In this document: piece after piece, positions 1,637-18,637 of the stretch
Layout: each line of letters starts with the position of its first letter
How positions within the stretch are numbered: the first letter of the stretch is position 1
From: an uncultured Pseudoalteromonadaceae bacterium
GTDB taxonomy: Bacteria; Pseudomonadota; Gammaproteobacteria; Enterobacterales; Alteromonadaceae
DNA length: 64,000 nt
NCBI GenBank assembly: GCA_964640795.1
Contig: CAZXIN010000003.1
Location: 60,262 to 124,261, forward strand
Direction: 5' to 3'
Notes under the pieces: generated by a model
Told to the model about the DNA's origin: nothing
Database searches by the model: none
What the model saw: the letters and a program-made list of their open reading frames with translations, nothing else
Program-made: the position numbers and the translations under genes

Positions 1637-3763
1637 TCATTGTATGAGAGGGTGTTGTAAAATCTTAATATCTGATTGAGGGTATGCGGCATTGGTAAAT
1701 AAAAGACTGCTATCGAGCGTGTTAATTGACAATCCTTTAACACCCTGAAATGCAGATAACTGAGACAATTCAGTAAATGATTTTTCTTCTAAATCATAGT
1801 GCATGAAGCGGTATTGGTTATTTTTACTTTGTCGATAATAAACCCCATTCTTGTGAAGAACCCAATAATATCGAGTGTTAAAGTGCCTGCGCCTAAGCAG
1901 GCGTGTTGGTTCGTCTTCGCTGCTCAAGTTTTGTTGCCATAAGCGGCCATTGCTTGAAACATAAATGAGTGATGTGTCTGAGATCATATAGCCATAACGC
2001 CCACGATTAAATGTTAGGCGGCTAGGTTCACCGCCAGAGAGTGGGAAGCGGTAGAGTTCTGTTCTGTTATCTTTTGATACGGCTGAAATAATAGCGTCGT
2101 CGTTGAAGCCCCAAGTTGGCCTAGCATGATATTTAAAGCTTGTCTCTAGCAGCGAAACTTGGTTTTTGTGTATGTCTACAATACCAACCTGATATCCTTC
2201 GGTGTCCTTATCTCGTTGAAGAAATGCAATTTTTTGACCGTCATGAGACCAGCGAGGGTACTTTAGTTCTTGACCTTGCTTTGTCAGCTGTTGCCTGTTG
2301 AGTCCTTTGTTATCTGACAACCATAACTCATATTGCCCTGACTCATTAGATACGTAAACTATTTGATTGGAAGCTGAAGAGTAGTCAGGGTAACTATGGC
2401 TAAAATCCGACAACATGAAAGGTTGGACGTTACTAGGAGAATCAGGCAATAAACTTAAACTTGCTATATGATAGTTTTCTATGTGTTGTTGGTAAAATAG
2501 CTCTCCTGAGGCCATCGAAAAAGCAGGGTAACTAAATCCATCAATATTGAGTGGGTTTTGCTTTTTTGAGGCAACGTCAATGACATATCCGCCTCTTATA
2601 TCGGCATTTTGTGACGCATAAACTAAAGACTCTCCCTTGGGATGCCAGGTTAAGCCTAATATGTCACTTTCACCAAAAGTCAGCTGTTCTTCTCGACCGT
2701 TTTGTAGGTCAACCAAGTAAATATTTTCACTGTTGTCGTTATTGCGACGGCTGATGGCGATTTGTTTACCATCAGGAGAGAAAGCCATGTCCCTGTCTTT
2801 GGAGTCGCAGTTTTCTAAGCATGAAAAACGAACAGGCGCATCAGAAAGGTCATCCAAGTTTTTGAAGTAAATGCCGCTGTTTTTATTGTCTTTGTCTCTT
2901 CCAATATAAGCTAAAGTACTGCCATCAGGCGATATGTCGATATATTGGTAGCCGCTACTGCTGCTGCAATTAGCAATTGGAGTTTCAACATGAGTAGATA
3001 GTGTTACTCGCCTGATTTGGCAATACGGTTTAGTGCGATTCTGACTACTGAAATAGAGGTGCTTTTCATCTGGGCTCCAAACAGAGAACCCTTCTTTTGC
3101 ATCGCTATTGGTTAATTGTTTGGGAGGTGCGTCTGGATATTGTCTATCTTGCATATATAAATTGATATCGCCAGCAGAGTTTATCCATTGATAAGAGATG
3201 AATCTGCCACTGGGTGATGGTGCAACAAAGAGCTCACTGCCAGGGTGTTTAGTAAGATGCTTTATATTGAGTATGGGTTGGTTAAGAGGAAGAAGGGATG
3301 TTGAAGTTAAGTATATAACAGTAAAAATCGCAGCAATAAATAGAGTGCTTATTTTGACTATTGGATAACTTAGCCATAGCTTTTTAAGTGTTAGATAGTT
3401 GCTTTTGGGTTGAGCCTCTTGAAGTGTTGGAGCATCTAACCATTGTGGTTTAATCAATAGTCTATACCCAGCCTTTCTGACGGTTTCTATTATAGGGGCA
3501 TCAGTCTCTTGATTTTTGAGATCTTGTCTTAGATGCCAGATAGTGTTGGTGAGAGGCTTTCCCCCTATGCTTGGATCATTAGACCAAAATAATTTTATTA
3601 ACTCTTGCCTAGTGATAATTTTGGGGTATTGCTGAGCTAGGTAACTTAAAACCGCCATTTGCTTCGGCTGAATAGTATGTGTCGTTCCATTGTCAAAATG
3701 AATCGAAAAATCACAAGGCTGGACGACACAGTCGCCAACCTTAAAAGCATTTTCTGTGCTCAT
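1637..3763 (-). CDS. CadC/ToxR-like membrane-anchored regulator: winged-helix domain + TM + TolB-like (PD40) beta-propeller
   Basis: N-terminal OmpR-type wHTH (IQPKQMAVLSYL...IETVRKAGYRL), one hydrophobic helix (ISTLFIAAIFTVIYL), then repeated xSPDG/WSPD/WHP propeller motifs. Confidence 0.88.
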   Translation of the reverse strand: MSTENAFKVGDCVVQPCDFSIHFDNGTTHTIQPKQMAVLSYLAQQYPKIITRQELIKLFWSNDPSIGGKPLTNTIWHLRQDLKNQETDAPIIETVRKAGYRLLIKPQWLDAPTLQEAQPKSNYLTLKKLWLSYPIVKISTLFIAAIFTVIYLTSTSLLPLNQPILNIKHLTKHPGSELFVAPSPSGRFISYQWINSAGDINLYMQDRQYPDAPPKQLTNSDAKEGFSVWSPDEKHLYFSSQNRTKPYCQIRRVTLSTHVETPIANCSSSSGYQYIDISPDGSTLAYIGRDKDNKNSGIYFKNLDDLSDAPVRFSCLENCDSKDRDMAFSPDGKQIAISRRNNDNSENIYLVDLQNGREEQLTFGESDILGLTWHPKGESLVYASQNADIRGGYVIDVASKKQNPLNIDGFSYPAFSMASGELFYQQHIENYHIASLSLLPDSPSNVQPFMLSDFSHSYPDYSSASNQIVYVSNESGQYELWLSDNKGLNRQQLTKQGQELKYPRWSHDGQKIAFLQRDKDTEGYQVGIVDIHKNQVSLLETSFKYHARPTWGFNDDAIISAVSKDNRTELYRFPLSGGEPSRLTFNRGRYGYMISDTSLIYVSSNGRLWQQNLSSEDEPTRLLRRRHFNTRYYWVLHKNGVYYRQSKNNQYRFMHYDLEEKSFTELSQLSAFQGVKGLSINTLDSSLLFTNAAYPQSDIKILQHPLIQ

Positions 3764-11793: not shown

Positions 11794-12936
11794 GTGATTA
11801 TGTCGATGTTTAAAGTGCTCTTATTGTTAGTTCAATTTATTGGGTTGCTCATGCTTTCTTCCATGAGTATTGCGCTGCAAGTTGTTGAAGTAGATGATCC
11901 AAACTGGGTGTTTGATGATAAAGGAGTCAGTCTTGAAAAGGTTGCTGGGCGTCAAGCTATCAAGATTAAATCAGGAAAAGCCGTTTTAAACGATATTTTA
12001 TTGGAAGATGGGATCATTGAATATGATATGTACCTTTCCGGTGAGCGCGCTTTTAGCTATTTGTATTTTCGTTATGAATCTAACGATGAGCACGAAGAAA
12101 TTTACTTCAGAAGTCACAAGAGTAATGCGCCTGATGCGGTGCAGTATTCACCTGTTTTTCAGCGACGTTCGGCTTGGCAAATCTATCATGGTGATAAAGG
12201 CACTGCGCCAGTAACATTGCCACCTAAAACGTGGATCAAAGTCAAAATTGAACTGATTGGGCAAACAATGAAGTTATGGGTGGGAGATAATCCAGAAGTG
12301 GTACTCACGATTAACCACTTGGGGCGGAAGGCTCAATCAGGAGCATTGGCTTTTCGAGGCTTTGTGCCTAGAAATAGCCCCGCAGAATACAGTGCTTATT
12401 TCAGTAACTTAAAAATCACCAAAAGAACGGCTGCTAAGACTGACGTTAACCCTGATGTATCTTTACCTTTAGGGCAGATTACAACGTGGCGTGTTTCACC
12501 TGCATTCGATAGCGCGAAAGGGCCTGTGGTTCAGTTGCCAGAGTTACCTGATAGCAGTAAGTGGACAACGCCCACTATGCAGCCAGATGGTAGTTTTGAG
12601 TTTTTACGATCGCGAAAGATACCAGATAAATCTGGGCACTGGGCAACGGCTGCAGACGTAACCCTTCGTTCTGAACAACCTCAAAATTGCGAGTTACACC
12701 TTGGGTTTAGCGATGAAATAACGCTGTCGGTAAATGGAACCCCCGTGTTATATCAGGATGCTAGTTATAGATACGGTGATAGGCGGCAAGAAGGGTTGAT
12801 GCATCCAGATCAAGTTGTTGCCTATATTCAGTTGGCTAAAGGTGATAATCATGTTCGAGCTGTGATTGCAGATCGATTTGGTGGATGGGGGTTAAGCGCT
12901 CGTCTTGAAAAATGTACTGGTGTAGAGCAGCGCTAA
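11794..12936 (+). CDS. Exported protein with DUF1080/concanavalin-like N-domain and beta-sandwich C-domain
   Basis: Signal peptide; LEDGIIEYDM...EEIYFR...DAVQYSPV...WQIYHG...WIKVKIEL pattern. Confidence 0.65.
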   Translation: MIMSMFKVLLLLVQFIGLLMLSSMSIALQVVEVDDPNWVFDDKGVSLEKVAGRQAIKIKSGKAVLNDILLEDGIIEYDMYLSGERAFSYLYFRYESNDEHEEIYFRSHKSNAPDAVQYSPVFQRRSAWQIYHGDKGTAPVTLPPKTWIKVKIELIGQTMKLWVGDNPEVVLTINHLGRKAQSGALAFRGFVPRNSPAEYSAYFSNLKITKRTAAKTDVNPDVSLPLGQITTWRVSPAFDSAKGPVVQLPELPDSSKWTTPTMQPDGSFEFLRSRKIPDKSGHWATAADVTLRSEQPQNCELHLGFSDEITLSVNGTPVLYQDASYRYGDRRQEGLMHPDQVVAYIQLAKGDNHVRAVIADRFGGWGLSARLEKCTGVEQR

Positions 12937-12997
12937 GCCTTCAAATGCTAATTGAATGCACTGGAACAGGGCATTTGTTGCACAAAATAAACGAACC

Positions 12998-13411
12998 CTA
13001 GTGCGCTAGAGCCTGATCAGGGGCTTTTAAAGTACTTGCCATATACGCTAGCATGGATGCTGCGCATAAGACTAACAAGCAAAATAGAATGGAGTTTCCA
13101 ATTATCGCGTGCAATAAGACTGACGTTGTGGCGATTGTTACCATCATAGTCGCCGCCACAAAAATGAAATTGGGCTTAAACAGTAAAAGTGCTGCTGTTA
13201 ATTTAAGGCTGCCAACCACAATCATGCCAAGGAAGTTTGACTCAATGGTAGCAAGTACCGAATACTGCGGAGGGTAACCTAATAAAGTTTGACTGCCGCA
13301 GACAGCAAAAACAACAAACAAAGATAACCTTAATACAGCATAGACTCCGTCTGATAGGAGCCGTTTCTTCTCTATGTACTCTTTTCGCTTTTCTTTGAAG
13401 GTACTCAACAT
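12998..13411 (-). CDS. Small membrane protein (DoxX-like)
   Basis: Four hydrophobic segments; LRLSLFVVF...GSLKLTAALLLF resembles DoxX. Confidence 0.55.
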   Translation of the reverse strand: MLSTFKEKRKEYIEKKRLLSDGVYAVLRLSLFVVFAVCGSQTLLGYPPQYSVLATIESNFLGMIVVGSLKLTAALLLFKPNFIFVAATMMVTIATTSVLLHAIIGNSILFCLLVLCAASMLAYMASTLKAPDQALAH

Positions 13412-13843
13412 AACGTTTCCCTTTTATATAGATTGATATGTTGGTGGTGTTCAGCTTATCTATAAGAACTCGACCGATCGTAGCAATCCTATTAATCATA
13501 TGAATGAGTAAGCATTTTATAGGCCAACAGTAACAATAAAGTGATTGGTTGATCTCGATGCCTTTAGTGTTAGCTTGGTTAAAATGAATGATATATCTCA
13601 GTCGTATTACTTATGTCTTTGACTTATATGCGCTTTGATTAAGAAAGTACTGTCCTTTGTTGTAGTCGACGATCTTATTTTTTTAACGCTCTTTAAGCTC
13701 AGAATGTATTCTGAAATGTAAACCTCTTGGTTGGTGATGCCATTCTCTTTCTGAGTTGTAAAAAAATATGACAGGTGTGCCGATTCAAAACTCAGATTGA
13801 CGAGATATCGGCTAAACAAACGCTAACGGCGATTTCGTGCGTA

Positions 13844-13883
13844 ATACCAATCATAGTGATCAGTTCTCACTAGGGGTTGGTAT
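13844..13883. repeat. 40-bp ATACCAA...TTGGTAT hairpin (collapsed MITE-like remnant)
   Basis: ATACCAATCATAGTGA / TCACTAGGGGTTGGTAT arms; same ATACCAATCA start as 10679. Confidence 0.55.
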
Positions 13884-13922
13884 AATGTATTCTGAAACAA
13901 TAATAAAAACGAGAAAGGCATA

Positions 13923-14216
13923 ATGGAAAAGCTATTCGTCAGCTTATTTGCATTGATTTGTGCTTGCGACTTAGTCTTAAAAATTGAGCAAGTGACTGTA
14001 GCGGCTGCCAACAGCGAACCAAATATGAGGCTTCCTAAGGGAGGTTGGCTCGAGACTCAACCAACAACTGTCCTCAAAAAGTGGCTGAGTGATGTTTTAA
14101 TTATGCAGCCGAGAAGTGATATGAGCATGCTACTGCAACTTCGCACTTTCGTTTGGCACGTTATGAAGTGTTTGATGAAGAGGTTTGATGTGCGCGTGAC
14201 CAAATTGGCGTTGTAA
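13923..14216 (+). CDS. Possible small exported/lipoprotein ORF, hypothetical
   Basis: RBS-like GAAAGG before ATG, hydrophobic N-terminus ending in ALICAC, stop 3 bp before the next start; no recognisable family. Confidence 0.3.
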   Translation: MEKLFVSLFALICACDLVLKIEQVTVAAANSEPNMRLPKGGWLETQPTTVLKKWLSDVLIMQPRSDMSMLLQLRTFVWHVMKCLMKRFDVRVTKLAL

Positions 14217-14219
14217 CAC

Positions 14220-15257
14220 GTGCCCTTGTTGTTACTAAACTGGGTTAACCTGGTACAAGTTAGCGCATTGACGCTGCTGGTTTTTGGCTTGTATTTGCTT
14301 AAAGGCTATAAGCATTATCGATTGGTGCAGGCGTTCTTTGTGTTTGTGCTGGCTCTGGTTGTCGCCAATATTGCTGAAGAAGTGTTCAATACGCGCCAAT
14401 GGTATCTCGTTTCGCCTATATTTGTGGTGGGCTATGGGCCTATGCTTTATCTCGTTGCTCGTTCTCTAGTGCATCAAAGTATCAATAGGAAAGGGATATA
14501 TCACTTTTTACCTATGTTTGCGTCACTCTTCTTTACTCAGCATCCGCAATGGGTTATTGGCTTCGGTACTATACTGCAAGCGATCTATGCTGCGATGACT
14601 TTTCTGTTGGTGCTGAATTTTAATAAAGAACTCTTGAGCAAGAGGTCAGATTCCGAAGACCTGTCGCTGACATGGTTTGCTTGGTTGTTTGGTGTTTCCA
14701 CTATGGTACATGTTTTCGACTTAGTGAGACTTAATATTCAGCCGTTTATTGATCTTGATACTAATCTGTTAGGGCAACTGCTTAGTACTATCATTGGTGT
14801 TGTCGTTATGGCTGTCATGTTGAAAAAATTACTTCAATATAACGAGGGGATTTTATCACTAATTGAGCAGAATGAGATCGATGAGGTTTCTGGCACCGAT
14901 GATTCAAAAGGTGATGACTTTCTGTCTATCTTCGAACATCTTGACACCGATATAAAGTTAAAAGGTCTTTACCGGCAACCGCGTTTAAGCTTGACTGATT
15001 TGTCTAATCAAACTGGATTGCAGTCTCGAGATATCTCCAGAGCGATTAACCTGCATAGTGGATTAAACTTTAATGACTACATTAACCAGTTTCGTGTTGA
15101 GGATGTCAAACGCGCAATTTTATCGGCACCCAATGCTTCTCTGCTAGAGTTGGCATTAGTTGTAGGATTTAATTCCAAAACCAGCTTCAACCAAACCTTC
15201 AAGAGGTTAACTGGTGAAACACCTAGCGCATTCAAAAAGCGCCATATCAAGACTTAG
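14220..15257 (+). CDS. Membrane-embedded AraC-family regulator (multi-TM N-terminus + C-terminal HTH)
   Basis: About six hydrophobic helices, then LYRQPRLSLTDLS...NFNDYINQFRVE...VGFNSKTSFNQTFKRLTGETPSAFKK. Confidence 0.9.
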   Translation: MPLLLLNWVNLVQVSALTLLVFGLYLLKGYKHYRLVQAFFVFVLALVVANIAEEVFNTRQWYLVSPIFVVGYGPMLYLVARSLVHQSINRKGIYHFLPMFASLFFTQHPQWVIGFGTILQAIYAAMTFLLVLNFNKELLSKRSDSEDLSLTWFAWLFGVSTMVHVFDLVRLNIQPFIDLDTNLLGQLLSTIIGVVVMAVMLKKLLQYNEGILSLIEQNEIDEVSGTDDSKGDDFLSIFEHLDTDIKLKGLYRQPRLSLTDLSNQTGLQSRDISRAINLHSGLNFNDYINQFRVEDVKRAILSAPNASLLELALVVGFNSKTSFNQTFKRLTGETPSAFKKRHIKT

Positions 15258-15259
15258 AG

Positions 15260-15283
15260 CGTTCTAAATCATGATTTAGAACG
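15260..15283. promoter_or_regulatory. Perfect 24-bp palindrome CGTTCTAAATCATGATTTAGAACG, candidate operator
   Basis: Exact self-complementary sequence 2 bp after the AraC stop and 52 bp before the amidohydrolase ORF; no poly-U tract on the plus strand. Confidence 0.65.
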
Positions 15284-15335
15284 AATAAAAAAGCGAACTC
15301 GATAGGCTGTCCGTCAATGATTTTTACAGGATGAC

Positions 15336-16703
15336 TTGATGCCTACTTTTATACGTCTTGCTTTTAGCTTTATCGTGCTAGTGACTCTTGGTTGCAATAC
15401 GGTTGCTCCAGAATCAAACCATGACCTTGTATTAACAAACGTTAATGTCGTTGATCCACTCAATAAAACCATTATCCCAAATCAAAAAATATGGATGAGT
15501 GACGGTGTTATAAAAACAATCAGTCCGGCCAGTGACTTAGTTGAATCAACCAAGGTGAATACGATTGATGGACAGGGTGGTTTTGTGACGCCAGGCTTAA
15601 TTGATATGCACACGCATATATACGATAGAGCTGCACCTGCGATTGCCCTCTCACATGGTGTAGTGCATATGCGTGTGTTAAATGGCATGCCGCAGCTTTT
15701 ACAATGGCGAGAAGCCTTGAATAAGGGCGAATTGTGGGGAAGTACATTGAGTGTCAGTAGTCCCATAGTGACTGGGAATCCAGATGACGCTCTTAGAACT
15801 TACATTGAAACAACCGCTGATGCCCATGATGCTGTCGAAGATGCACTTGAGGCGGGATATGATTTGATTAAGGTATACAATAGCCTATCCCTTGAGTTAC
15901 ATGACGCAGTTATCACTCGGGCCAATGAGCTCAATATGCCGATAGCTCAGCACGGTCCGCATCCGCCAACAGGGATGCCGTGGGAACGACTCAAAGGAAT
16001 ACAATCACTTGAGCATGTAGAAGACATATTTCAAGGGCCTTTAGTGTTTAAACAGGATGCAGAAAAGTTAGAAAAAACGCTAACTAAACTAAAAGCACTT
16101 GAAGTGCCTATTGTCCCAACCTTGAGTGTTTTTGAACAACTGACGCGGATAAGCACGGAAAAAGAGGTATTTCTCAATACATTACCGACTGATTATACGC
16201 CGCCCATTGTTCGTTATGTCGAGAAAACAGGGCAAGTTAAACGTTGGTTAGATGCGTCAGAGGCAAGAGCAGATTTCAATCGCCAAGAGCTGGAATATTT
16301 GATCCACATAACGCGCGAAATTCATGATAAAAGCATGCCCATATTAGTTGGTTCAGATTCTGGCGTTTTAATGTTGCCCTATGGTTTGGGCACACATTCT
16401 GAAATGGCGCTATTGTTAAGGGCTGGACTATCTAGCTTTGAGGTGATTCAAGCTGCAACCGTTAGTCCGGCTAAGGTGCTTGGGCTTGATTCTGAATTAG
16501 GGCAAATTAAACGTAACGCAAGAGCTGATTTTATCTACACTCGAAGCAATCCAACACAGGATTTAACTGTACTGAGAGAGCCTGATGCAGTGGTTAAAAA
16601 AGGCCGATGGTATAGTGCGGAGTCGTTAATTGCACACAGAGAGAATGCGATTAGAAAAAGAAGTTTGTTTAAGGAGTTATGGTTGTTGTTGAGTAATTTA
16701 TAG
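15336..16703 (+). CDS. Amidohydrolase family lipoprotein
   Basis: Lipobox VTLGC; TPGLIDMHTH, DLIKVY, IAQHG, SLEH, VGSDSG, AATVSPAKVLG, ADFI motifs. Confidence 0.9.
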   Translation: MMPTFIRLAFSFIVLVTLGCNTVAPESNHDLVLTNVNVVDPLNKTIIPNQKIWMSDGVIKTISPASDLVESTKVNTIDGQGGFVTPGLIDMHTHIYDRAAPAIALSHGVVHMRVLNGMPQLLQWREALNKGELWGSTLSVSSPIVTGNPDDALRTYIETTADAHDAVEDALEAGYDLIKVYNSLSLELHDAVITRANELNMPIAQHGPHPPTGMPWERLKGIQSLEHVEDIFQGPLVFKQDAEKLEKTLTKLKALEVPIVPTLSVFEQLTRISTEKEVFLNTLPTDYTPPIVRYVEKTGQVKRWLDASEARADFNRQELEYLIHITREIHDKSMPILVGSDSGVLMLPYGLGTHSEMALLLRAGLSSFEVIQAATVSPAKVLGLDSELGQIKRNARADFIYTRSNPTQDLTVLREPDAVVKKGRWYSAESLIAHRENAIRKRSLFKELWLLLSNL

Positions 16704-16792: not shown

Positions 16793-16820
16793 TTTAGTGG
16801 CTGCGGCCACTAAATTTTTT
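16793..16820 (+). terminator. Rho-independent terminator
   Basis: TTTAGTGGC-TGCG-GCCACTAAA followed by TTTTTT, downstream of the amidohydrolase. Confidence 0.75.
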
Positions 16821-16846
16821 GTCGACTTTGAAGTGATGAGTATGCC

Positions 16847-17269
16847 TTAACCGAATAGGTTATGGACATTATCTCTAGGCCTTGGTCTATGAGGCTCTAT
16901 AGAGTGAATAGGCAGCTTAGCATCATCATACTGATGAATATTGACTATCCATGGCTCCCCATCTTTGAAAATTGCATAGACCCTATCAACATCGACAAAA
17001 CAGATTAAAAATAGTGGACTAGCATGATTCACATATTGCCATTCATATTCATCTGTTTGACGAAAAGCATTATCTCCATGGAAACAAGCAGCATACACAT
17101 AGTCGGTTTTAGACTCAGATAGAGCGGTTTCATAATCAATAAAGCCACCCCATTGTATGGATTTATAGTCATACTCATTCTGTACCACATCCACACAGCG
17201 ACCACACGCATAACTGCCAACAACAACCGCTAAAGCTTCGTGTTTGAGTTTTAATTCATATTTCTTCAT
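16847..17269 (-). CDS. Hypothetical protein
   Basis: 140-aa ORF filling an intergenic gap with plausible composition; no motif recognised. Confidence 0.6.
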   Translation of the reverse strand: MKKYELKLKHEALAVVVGSYACGRCVDVVQNEYDYKSIQWGGFIDYETALSESKTDYVYAACFHGDNAFRQTDEYEWQYVNHASPLFLICFVDVDRVYAIFKDGEPWIVNIHQYDDAKLPIHSIEPHRPRPRDNVHNLFG

Positions 17270-17425
17270 GCTGTATAAATTTACAGTATTTTGTCTGGAA
17301 ACTCAAATTTTTACCAAACCACTCAAATTCAAAAGTATAAAGATTAGCGTAATACGCTCTAGCGTTTTCTATATCAGAATCAAGAGAAGTTGTTTTCTAC
17401 CAATGCTTAAAACATGAAAGTAAGC

Positions 17426-18637
17426 TTAAAGGTTTGTATGTGAAATCAGTTGCTGTAAGGCAATATTGAACTTATCTCGTAAATGAGAAGGAGTCGTTTG
17501 ATGAAGTTCAACGCGCTCGCATTTGTTAAATAGCATGAAGTGCTTTAGTTCTTTGATAAAAGCATCAATGAAAGGCTCCAGTTTCCTTAGTGTGGGTTCC
17601 AAAGCGATATGCTGAATATGAAGTGTGGATGTTTTCCTATCCGATTTGCAGTCGATTCTCGCAACGAGCTTTCCGTCCCATAAAATAGGTAATGAGAAAT
17701 AGCCATGTTGCCGTTTGTTCGCAGGTAGATAACACTCGATTAAATAATCAAAGTTAAAAAAGCGCTGCATACGCTTACGCTGAATAACTAAGTTGTCAAA
17801 TGGAGATAGGATCTTGAGCTTGCTTCTTGAGAGAGGCTGGCTTAACAGAGCAAATGATTGGGGTAATGCATAATATAAACTTTTACCTACATTAACTTCG
17901 GCCAATTCGTTACTGATCAGCATATTATGAATTTGAGTCTTTACTATCTCTTTAGTATTTTTCAGTAAATAAACGATATCTGGCAGTTGAGCTAACCCAT
18001 TAACTTCAAGGTATCTCGTAATGAGGAATCGCGCATACTCTTCATCGCTTGGCATGGTTGTGTCAACCGAACTTGGGAGTACACGTTCTGTTAAGTCATA
18101 GACTTTGTGAAAGTTATTTCGGCGAGAGATCATTAAATCCCCTTGCATAAAGAGGTATTCAAGCGCTTGTTTGGTTGGCTTGCTTGCCCAATCCACTTTG
18201 TTTGTTGTGTCATTGTCGAAGTCTTTTGCCATTAAAGGACCTTCGCTCTTGATTCTTTCCAATACTTCACTAATGAGTTTGTTGTTACGCGGATACCAGT
18301 GTTTTTGTTTACCTGTTTTCATGGCATGTTTACGAGATAAACTAAACCGATAGTCCTTCATGGGGAGGTAAGCGGCTGCATGTGACCAGTACTCAAAAGC
18401 ATCCTTTGATTTTACAAGCTGATCTAAATGATCATTTTTATATCTCGGGTTTCTGTTCCAAAGCGTATGGTGATGTGCTCTTTCAATGACTGAAATAGTA
18501 TCTATTTGCACATAACCAAGGTGCTCAAGTGCTGACAAAGTAACGTTAATACTTTGCCCTTTCGTTGTGCTAGGAGGTAGCTTTTGTGATAGGAGAATGA
18601 GTTTTCTGGCCTCTGCAATGGATAGTGAATCAGTCAA
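17426..18637 (-). CDS. ycaQ: YcaQ-family winged-helix DNA glycosylase (crosslink repair)
   Basis: LGYVQIDTISVIERAHH catalytic QxD motif, FEYWSHAA, ILSPFDNLVIQRKR, RQHGYFSLPIL. Confidence 0.9.
   Translation of the reverse strand: MTDSLSIAEARKLILLSQKLPPSTTKGQSINVTLSALEHLGYVQIDTISVIERAHHHTLWNRNPRYKNDHLDQLVKSKDAFEYWSHAAAYLPMKDYRFSLSRKHAMKTGKQKHWYPRNNKLISEVLERIKSEGPLMAKDFDNDTTNKVDWASKPTKQALEYLFMQGDLMISRRNNFHKVYDLTERVLPSSVDTTMPSDEEYARFLITRYLEVNGLAQLPDIVYLLKNTKEIVKTQIHNMLISNELAEVNVGKSLYYALPQSFALLSQPLSRSKLKILSPFDNLVIQRKRMQRFFNFDYLIECYLPANKRQHGYFSLPILWDGKLVARIDCKSDRKTSTLHIQHIALEPTLRKLEPFIDAFIKELKHFMLFNKCERVELHQTTPSHLRDKFNIALQQLISHTNL

Follow-up and report, generated by a model that had tools for sequence, protein, structure and literature searches.

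What does an exact 24-base-pair (bp) palindrome do when it sits two nucleotides (nt) past the stop codon of one gene, for a membrane-embedded AraC-type regulator, and shortly ahead of another, for an exported amidohydrolase? The question is raised by a 64,000-nt stretch of contig CAZXIN010000003.1 (GenBank assembly GCA_964640795.1) from an uncultured Pseudoalteromonadaceae bacterium, which we refer to as the window. An earlier reading of its sequence (the original prediction) took the palindrome for an operator rather than a terminator, and all of the elements that it described are present: the multi-transmembrane (TM) AraC protein, the exact palindrome 2 nt past its stop, the lipoprotein amidohydrolase and the terminator. 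Here we argue that the palindrome is likely to be the cis-regulatory box of the amidohydrolase promoter, with the adjacent 7-TM AraC regulator as the protein that most probably binds it. The features of the locus are as follows.

14220-15257, plus strand: gene for a 7-TM AraC-type one-component regulator (open reading frame (ORF) of 345 amino acids; PF12833 at E 1e-17, AlphaFold2 model, Foldseek)
15000-15242, plus strand: region coding for the HTH_18 domain (residues 261-341; PF12833), with first recognition helix RDISRAIN and second helix-turn-helix (HTH) GFNSKTSFN
15260-15283, unstranded: 24-bp box CGTTCTAAATCATGATTTAGAACG, the proposed operator or activator site (unique in the genome, conserved beside homologues, on the 5′ side of the target)
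15303-15308, plus strand: predicted -10 hexamer TAGGCT, beginning 19 nt past the box, with an implied -35 ACGAAT at 15281-15286
15328-15331, plus strand: Shine-Dalgarno sequence AGGA, 7 nt ahead of ATG 15339 and kept in a three-way alignment
15339-16703, plus strand: gene for a membrane-tethered amidohydrolase of 454 amino acids, the presumed regulated target (PF01979 at E 1e-15; alternative start TTG 15336)
16793-16824, plus strand: intrinsic terminator (9-bp stem, 4-nt loop, T-run)

The stop codon of the regulator gene, TAG at 15255-15257, is followed by AG and then by the palindrome from 15260. The amidohydrolase ORF opens at TTG 15336, 52 nt from the palindrome; ATG 15339 is the likelier start because of its distance from AGGA, and the gap is then 55 nt. 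The terminator that closes the unit, TTTAGTGGCTGCGGCCACTAAA followed by TTTTTTG, lies 90 nt past the amidohydrolase stop.

The conserved box

The palindrome is one copy of a box with the family consensus CGTnCnnAATCnnGATnnnGnACG. We found this box beside regulators at 25-70% protein identity, from Gammaproteobacteria and one alphaproteobacterium (the window, L012, L014, L002-4, L009, L016-L022, L025-27, L051, L006, L099 and L105). Thus the expectation of a conserved CGTYC...GRACG box after or beside TM-AraC homologues was borne out. Copies from five of these loci read as follows.

L012 (relative at 70% identity): CGTTCGGAATCATGATCCTGAACG
L014 (relative at 67% identity): TGTCCTCAATCACGATCCTGAACG
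L009: AGTCTGAAATCCTGATTTCGGACG
L019: CGTCCTAAATCCTGTTTTAGGACG
L027: AGTGCAAAATCATGATTCTGGACG

A position-weight matrix from 26 sites contains four conserved elements about 6 bp apart, namely (C/A)GT.C, AATC, GAT(T) and G.ACG. When the genome was scanned with this matrix it returned one strong site, the palindrome, at 28.4 bits, with the runner-up at 18.0 bits; this sole strong site adjoins the only member of the regulator family found there. Moreover, a three-way alignment of the closest loci (the window, L012 and L014) shows that the flanks have diverged and that the box, AATAAA, TAGGCT and AGGA are invariant.

The palindrome pairs at 12/12 positions in the window, as originally described, but this is not the general form of the site: full palindromy is confined to the window copy, and the relatives are pseudo-palindromic with a median of 8/12 pairs. 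Mismatches within the dyad are equally frequent as G.T (26) and A.C (21), and about nine sites carry an asymmetric pair of arms, AGTGC distal and GGACG proximal, which produces A.G and G.G clashes. Judging from the aligned copies, what is conserved is the sequence of the box and not a hairpin.

Conservation in orthologous and distant loci effectively refutes the reading of a palindrome that arose by chance or was left behind by a mobile element, to which we give next to no likelihood of being right. The number of perfect 24-bp palindromes expected by chance is about 0.45 for the entire 5.3-Mb genome and 0.005 for the window, and no second copy exists in that genome even when up to 5 mismatches are allowed. 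A repetitive extragenic palindromic (REP) element or a miniature inverted-repeat transposable element was rejected since there is no second or near copy. The genome holds about 24 perfect palindromes of at least 24 bp, most of which are terminators built as A-run, GC stem and T-run; the palindrome studied here is of another kind.

The cassette was absent from both of the same-genus genomes that were searched, and its gene order is the same as in metagenomic relatives. Since its distribution is patchy and yet extends to an alphaproteobacterium, regulator, box and target probably move together.

Position of the box and layout of the predicted promoter

The box is found about 50-105 nt ahead of the start of the hydrolase or other target gene in every gene order encountered, be the two genes tandem, reversed, divergent or convergent. 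At L012 some 50 nt are inserted between the regulator stop and the box, and the distance from box to amidohydrolase start is still about 60 nt. The order at L027 (Glaciecola) is box, amidohydrolase, regulator. At L020, L023, L024, L006 and L105 the box sits between divergent regulator and target genes, whilst at L099 the target encodes an exported alpha/beta hydrolase, the box lies ahead of it and the TM-AraC gene next to it is convergent. As far as gene order can tell, the box belongs to the promoter of the target gene, and its location at the regulator 3′ end in the window is an accident of tandem order. The original prediction had made the box a property of the regulator's own 3′ end; its place beside the regulator holds, but the 3′-end location is seen in tandem order only and the constant feature is the 5′ side of the target.

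These gene orders also bear on a role of the palindrome in RNA, as a terminator, an attenuator or a stabilising 3′ hairpin of the AraC messenger RNA. A 10-bp stem of -10 kcal/mol is possible right after the stop codon, and the L019 box is flanked by an A-run and a T-run. However, the AT-rich stem in the window is followed by AATAAAAAAG, hence there is no T-run, and so no U-tract, on either strand, and a terminator scan makes no call. The fold is no better than that of shuffled sequences (z -1.0), and Rfam holds no match for the palindrome, the one sub-threshold chance match being rli61 at 14 bits against a cut-off of 50. Nor is the stem conserved, given the low median pairing, the lack of a preference for G.U and the conserved clashes, and in reversed, divergent and convergent loci the box lies outside any plausible regulator transcript. 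A conserved terminator or RNA-hairpin role is ruled out because the box lies outside regulator transcripts in divergent and reversed loci and has no U-tract, and we regard an RNA role altogether as highly improbable; a minor, genome-specific effect of the palindrome on read-through is possible. The choice of operator over terminator in the original prediction therefore agrees with a box that, from its predicted placement, acts close to the promoter, lacks a U-tract and does not conserve its hairpin.

Promoter phasing gives a second line of evidence. A TAnnnT motif begins 19, 20 or 21 nt past the box in 16/25 sites (binomial p 5e-12, an optimistic value for a reason given below), against a background at other offsets of about 0.03 per site per offset. 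In the relatives at 70% and 67% identity TAGGCT is invariant and stands at the same spacing. Relative to the start predicted from TAGGCT, the box spans about -56 to -33 and overlaps the -35 position, where the implied hexamer ACGAAT is a poor match to TTGACA, as is the case at nearly all sites. This layout is predicted to be that of a class II, activator-dependent sigma-70 promoter, and the box is most likely an activator site. An extracytoplasmic function sigma factor promoter of the form GAAC...CGTC within 15296-15316 was considered and rejected, as its 13-nt spacing is wrong and it is not conserved in relatives.

The same regulator could instead repress, occupying the -35 region and holding the promoter off until a signal releases it. 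The box does overlap the predicted -35, and some AraC-family proteins repress. Nevertheless, almost every site has a poor implied -35, as activator-dependent promoters typically do, and AraC/XylS proteins whose sites abut the -35 are usually activators, as with AraC at I2 and the class II sites of MarA and SoxS. Moreover, the membrane AraC protein TfoS activates (PMC3903286). We judge repression unlikely and favour activation.

Two tandem boxes, 22 bp apart, are present at L016, L020 and L026. About two helical turns is the typical spacing at multi-site promoters of the AraC family. At L020 (Pseudoteredinibacter) one regulator gene is flanked by three boxes (2417-2440 and 3558-3603), of which one faces a divergent amidohydrolase gene and the tandem pair faces a downstream gene for an NmrA-like NAD-binding protein. 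By this arrangement L020 would be a two-target regulon around a single regulator.

The candidate binding protein and its targets

The C-terminal region of the regulator contains the two-HTH domain of AraC/XylS proteins, above gathering scores for both PF12833 (64.3 bits against a cut-off of 33.6, residues 261-341) and PF00165 (32.0 bits against 26.6). An AlphaFold2 model built from 43 homologues (mean predicted local distance difference test score, pLDDT, of 92) has seven N-terminal hydrophobic helices, in agreement with hydropathy, at residues 8-27, 31-55, 66-83, 90-105, 109-141, 151-176 and 179-206. Two linker helices (residues 208-248) lead to the AraC DNA-binding domain (residues 255-343). 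Loop charges agree with an N-out/C-in topology by the positive-inside rule as read from the sequence. The model thus unites a DNA-binding domain and a TM region in one polypeptide, as in a transmembrane transcription regulator. Searches with Foldseek matched AraC DNA-binding domains only (template modelling score, TM-score, on target 0.8-0.87), and the model superposes on the AraC-type structures 3oou, 3lsg, AdpA, SoxS and MarA (TM-score on target 0.6-0.87). For the membrane domain Foldseek gave no significant match, with a weak likeness to the 7-TM bundles of G-protein-coupled receptors and rhodopsins (TM-score 0.35-0.47). In NCBIfam no model reached its cut-off for either the regulator or the amidohydrolase.

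Homologues of the regulator are scarce, with about 60 full-length proteins in a collection of 5.8 billion; a search with just the membrane domain gave 100 clusters (50% identity) among 1.84 billion representatives. The hosts are mostly marine Gammaproteobacteria (Alteromonadaceae, Kangiellaceae, Arenicella and Pseudidiomarina), together with one alphaproteobacterium, Maricaulis.

We take this regulator to be the binding protein because its gene is the sole neighbour common to all box loci and because its recognition helix tracks the presence of the box. In most of the 21 box-bearing regulators the first recognition helix reads (R/K)(D/E)(I/V)S(R/W)AIN, with variants at one or two positions at L006, L016, L023, L025 and L026, whereas paralogues without this box have other recognition helices, such as HHLSEVLN and KALSTLIN. 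A comparison of the SRAIN and SWAIN variants of the helix with variants of the box arms gave no clear pattern.

The same observations bear on the proposal that the box is the operator of another, soluble dimeric transcription factor and that the AraC gene is a mere neighbour. A roughly two-fold symmetric 24-bp site would suit a classic HTH dimer better than it suits an AraC domain. Against this, no other gene is common to the loci, box and TM-AraC gene go together in different classes and phyla, box presence follows the AraC recognition helix, and a single site in the genome would be odd for an unlinked regulator. We therefore consider a soluble factor improbable.

Several points weigh against binding and activation by the membrane regulator. 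The sites of the matrix were chosen by eye, and the 25 sites used for phasing are phylogenetically non-independent, so that p-values are optimistic. The phasing itself fails in about a third of sites (L004, L016, L018, L022, L025, L026, L051, L099 and L020a). A search of 401 genomes of the order with the exact pattern GTNCNNAATCNNGATNNNGNACG found matches in 8 genomes against about 13 matches for the reversed control, and hence no genome-wide enrichment. Among the genomes with non-self matches, 3 have them beside TM-AraC genes (palindromic boxes at L098, L099 and L102/L105), which are the informative cases, and those in the other 4 genomes (L097, L100, L101 and L103) look like chance. A 24-bp dyad is unusual as a site for an AraC domain, one of which comprises two HTHs and usually covers an asymmetric sequence of 17-20 bp. 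Lastly, a site over the -35 could equally repress. For the identity of the binding protein, activation as against repression, stoichiometry, signal and substrate alike, the account that follows is what we infer.

The regulator would be an inner-membrane protein whose N-terminus lies outside and whose C-terminal AraC domain projects into the cytoplasm. On a signal arising within or at the membrane, it would recruit RNA polymerase at the box. In a parallel membrane homodimer the two-fold axis runs along the membrane normal, a geometry that would be well suited to a site with dyad symmetry, and four elements at 6-bp spacing would fit two domains in a two-fold symmetric reading. The induced product would be a membrane-tethered metallo-amidohydrolase that faces the periplasm and belongs to the peptidase-like COG1228 type.

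With regard to this product, PF01979 matches the amidohydrolase at 58 bits (cut-off 25; E 1e-15), and residues H91, H93, K178, H205, H226 and D340 are invariant in 15 regulator-linked homologues. These correspond to the HxH, Lys, two His and Asp ligands of the binuclear metal site in the (beta/alpha)8 barrel of the amidohydrolase superfamily, and enzyme activity is predicted. The regulator-linked amidohydrolases form one subfamily, at 25-66% identity to the window enzyme. The N-terminus, MPTFIRLAFSFIVLVTLGC, fits by reading the lipobox pattern of the PROSITE PS51257 type (lipobox ...LVTLGC); orthologues have the lipoboxes LCAC, IASC, MTSC, FAGC and LISC, and more distant homologues have an N-terminal TM anchor. 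Since the N-terminus is either a lipobox or a TM anchor, these enzymes are predicted to be tethered on the periplasmic side. Other box-linked targets are S41 peptidases with tetratricopeptide repeats (TPR-S41), CPBP (Rce1-like) proteases, an NmrA-like protein, a leucine-rich repeat protein and an alpha/beta hydrolase.

Upstream of the regulator, window positions 13412-14219 amount to about 800 nt without a convincing gene; a 97-amino-acid ORF at 13923-14216 belongs to no family and is missing from the orthologous loci L012 and L014. The box does not occur in 13412-14219, which makes autoregulation through it unlikely. Further upstream, on the minus strand (11794-13411), are genes for an exported protein like DUF1080/3-keto-disaccharide hydrolases (380 amino acids; PF06439 just under cut-off) and a four-helix membrane protein of 137 amino acids. 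The order of these genes is the same in L012 and L014 and therefore the whole neighbourhood is orthologous. Past the terminator, two minus-strand ORFs of 140 amino acids (no Pfam match) and 403 amino acids lie convergent with the cassette (16847-18637).

Wider occurrence and known systems

We carried out a wider test on 67 loci that had not been used to define the box, from Bacteroidota, Leptospira, Acidobacteriota and other Proteobacteria. A relaxed dyad, CGWYC-N14-GRWCG at ≥9/10, was sought in the region -20 to +130 of the AraC stop. By this definition, which is loose and was set after examples had been seen, 20/9,986 positions near the AraC stop carried the dyad against 75/346,601 elsewhere (9.3-fold, Fisher p 2e-12). 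Perfect 10/10 dyads numbered 5 near the stop and 2 elsewhere (87-fold). The regulators at these loci are nearly all polytopic with 4-7 hydrophobic segments, one having 3 and one not being scorable. About 19-21 nt past the relaxed dyad stands TATAAT or TAAATT, or in Bacteroidota a -7 element like TAnnTTTG, for example TAGTTTTG, TAATTTTG or cATATTTG. The targets are envelope proteins: CPBP proteins (three cases), a beta-lactamase-fold protein, an alpha/beta hydrolase, a redoxin, and SurE-like, MacB/FtsX and TonB-receptor-like proteins.

These counts are suggestive, rather than proof, of a box grammar that extends beyond the family. With somewhat more doubt than conviction, we hypothesise that polytopic (5-7 TM) AraC regulators share one operator and promoter grammar across phyla. 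In it, the proximal end of the 24-bp dyad CGWYC-N14-GRWCG would precede the -10 element (in Bacteroidota the -7 element) of a neighbouring gene for an envelope protein by 19-21 nt, and the dyad would be read by a membrane-embedded two-fold dimer. If this is true, regulons of one gene each could be predicted from the sequence for thousands of membrane sensors that have yet to be studied, and the window palindrome would be the idealised form of a shared site.

Paralogues were also seen at other loci. On contig C22 of the window's own genome, G000 (12669-15211; L010 1369-3911), a paralogous polytopic AraC gene (31% identity) lies ahead of one that encodes an exported M20 peptidase, and the layout is the same in the same-genus genome G001 (L005). 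Between the two genes on C22 are two 22-bp direct repeats, ACGTTCAgTaTTATAAgatc and ACGTTCAaTtTTATAAtctg, each of the form CGTTC-N14-xxxCG at 9/10, and an extended -10-like element, TGATGAAAT, 20 nt past the second repeat; the grammar is the same with a different inner sequence. Downstream of a box-less TM-AraC paralogue in genome G030 (L007 2416-2590) there are repeated GC-rich hairpins of REP-like type, GTCATTCCCGCGAAAGCGGGAATC and GTCATTCCCACGAAAGTGGGAATC.

Transmembrane one-component regulators are abundant, and the few that have been studied are bitopic (ToxR, CadC, TcpP and TfoS); surveys have counted AraC proteins with 6-7 TM helices without dissecting them. With a conserved operator next to the regulator gene and at constant spacing from the -10, the family becomes testable: the DNA site, the target gene and the mutations worth making are all specified, and the box allows regulons to be predicted by sequence. 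The box also raises the structural question of how a 24-bp dyad could be read from the membrane by AraC domains, whose usual sites are asymmetric or direct repeats. The range of targets, with tethered amidohydrolases, S41 and CPBP proteases, beta-lactamase-fold and alpha/beta hydrolases and MacB-type permeases, suggests a widespread module that senses in the membrane and acts in the envelope. In a noisy search limited to open-access text we found no description of the box, its -10 phasing or its spread across phyla, and a conserved operator grammar of membrane AraC regulators appears to be undescribed.

The membrane-embedded AraC protein itself, put forward by the original prediction as a new subclass, has precedents. 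A 2023 survey of 50,302 transmembrane regulators already has HTH_18 as their most frequent DNA-binding domain, at 33% (PMC10269533, Table S1A), and AraC proteins with 6-7 TM helices were noted in 2008 (PMC2386152). In Saccharophagus degradans 2-40, 16/31 AraC proteins are membrane-bound, several with 6-7 TM helices and beside secreted glycanases, and they were proposed to sense and respond to extracellular polymers (PMC2386152). These proteins and those of the survey share the architecture of a polytopic N-terminal region and a C-terminal AraC HTH domain, and in S. degradans the genomic logic is also the same, with the regulator gene adjoining that of an exported enzyme. However, both studies are censuses with context hypotheses, without an operator, promoter architecture or experimental test (PMC2386152, PMC10269533), and whereas the S. 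degradans regulators lie beside glycanases, those described here adjoin genes for amidohydrolases, proteases of the S41 and CPBP families and further envelope proteins.

Experiments have established the Vibrio cholerae protein TfoS as a membrane AraC activator; it too lies in the inner membrane with a cytoplasmic AraC-like domain, and it activates its promoter directly from the membrane (PMC3903286). It differs in having one TM helix, a large periplasmic sensor and a target, tfoR, that is no neighbouring hydrolase gene (PMC3903286); the window regulator has seven such helices, lacks a periplasmic domain and has one presumed target, which adjoins it. In systems of the CadC-cadBA and ToxR type the gene for a membrane-tethered regulator likewise lies immediately beside the controlled promoter, which suits a protein that cannot diffuse through the cytoplasm. 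These regulators, though, have an N-terminal winged-helix domain of the OmpR type, a single TM helix and a periplasmic sensor, and their operators are direct or quasi-palindromic repeats unrelated in sequence to the box.

On the enzyme side, the nearest solved relatives, all peptidase-like, are a prolidase-like protein (2p9b), the bottromycin amidohydrolase PurAH (6i5s) and the carboxypeptidase Cc2672 (3mtw), which with Sgx9260 (3be7) represent COG1228-type amidohydrolases. Like the window enzyme they have the PF01979 fold and its metal ligands (HxH, Lys, two His and Asp), but the matches are weak (best E-value 3e-19), and the window enzyme falls under every NCBIfam cut-off and is predicted to be membrane-tethered.

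At the level of the promoter, the closest parallel is with class II AraC/XylS promoters (AraC I2 at araBAD; the marboxes of MarA, SoxS and Rob), where the site, as is predicted for the box, adjoins or covers a weak -35 and keeps a constant spacing to the -10. Sites of that class are either direct repeats at intervals of about 21 bp or asymmetric boxes of 17-20 bp that a single domain reads, whereas the box described here is a 24-bp pseudo-palindrome of four elements about 6 bp apart, with tandem copies 22 bp apart.

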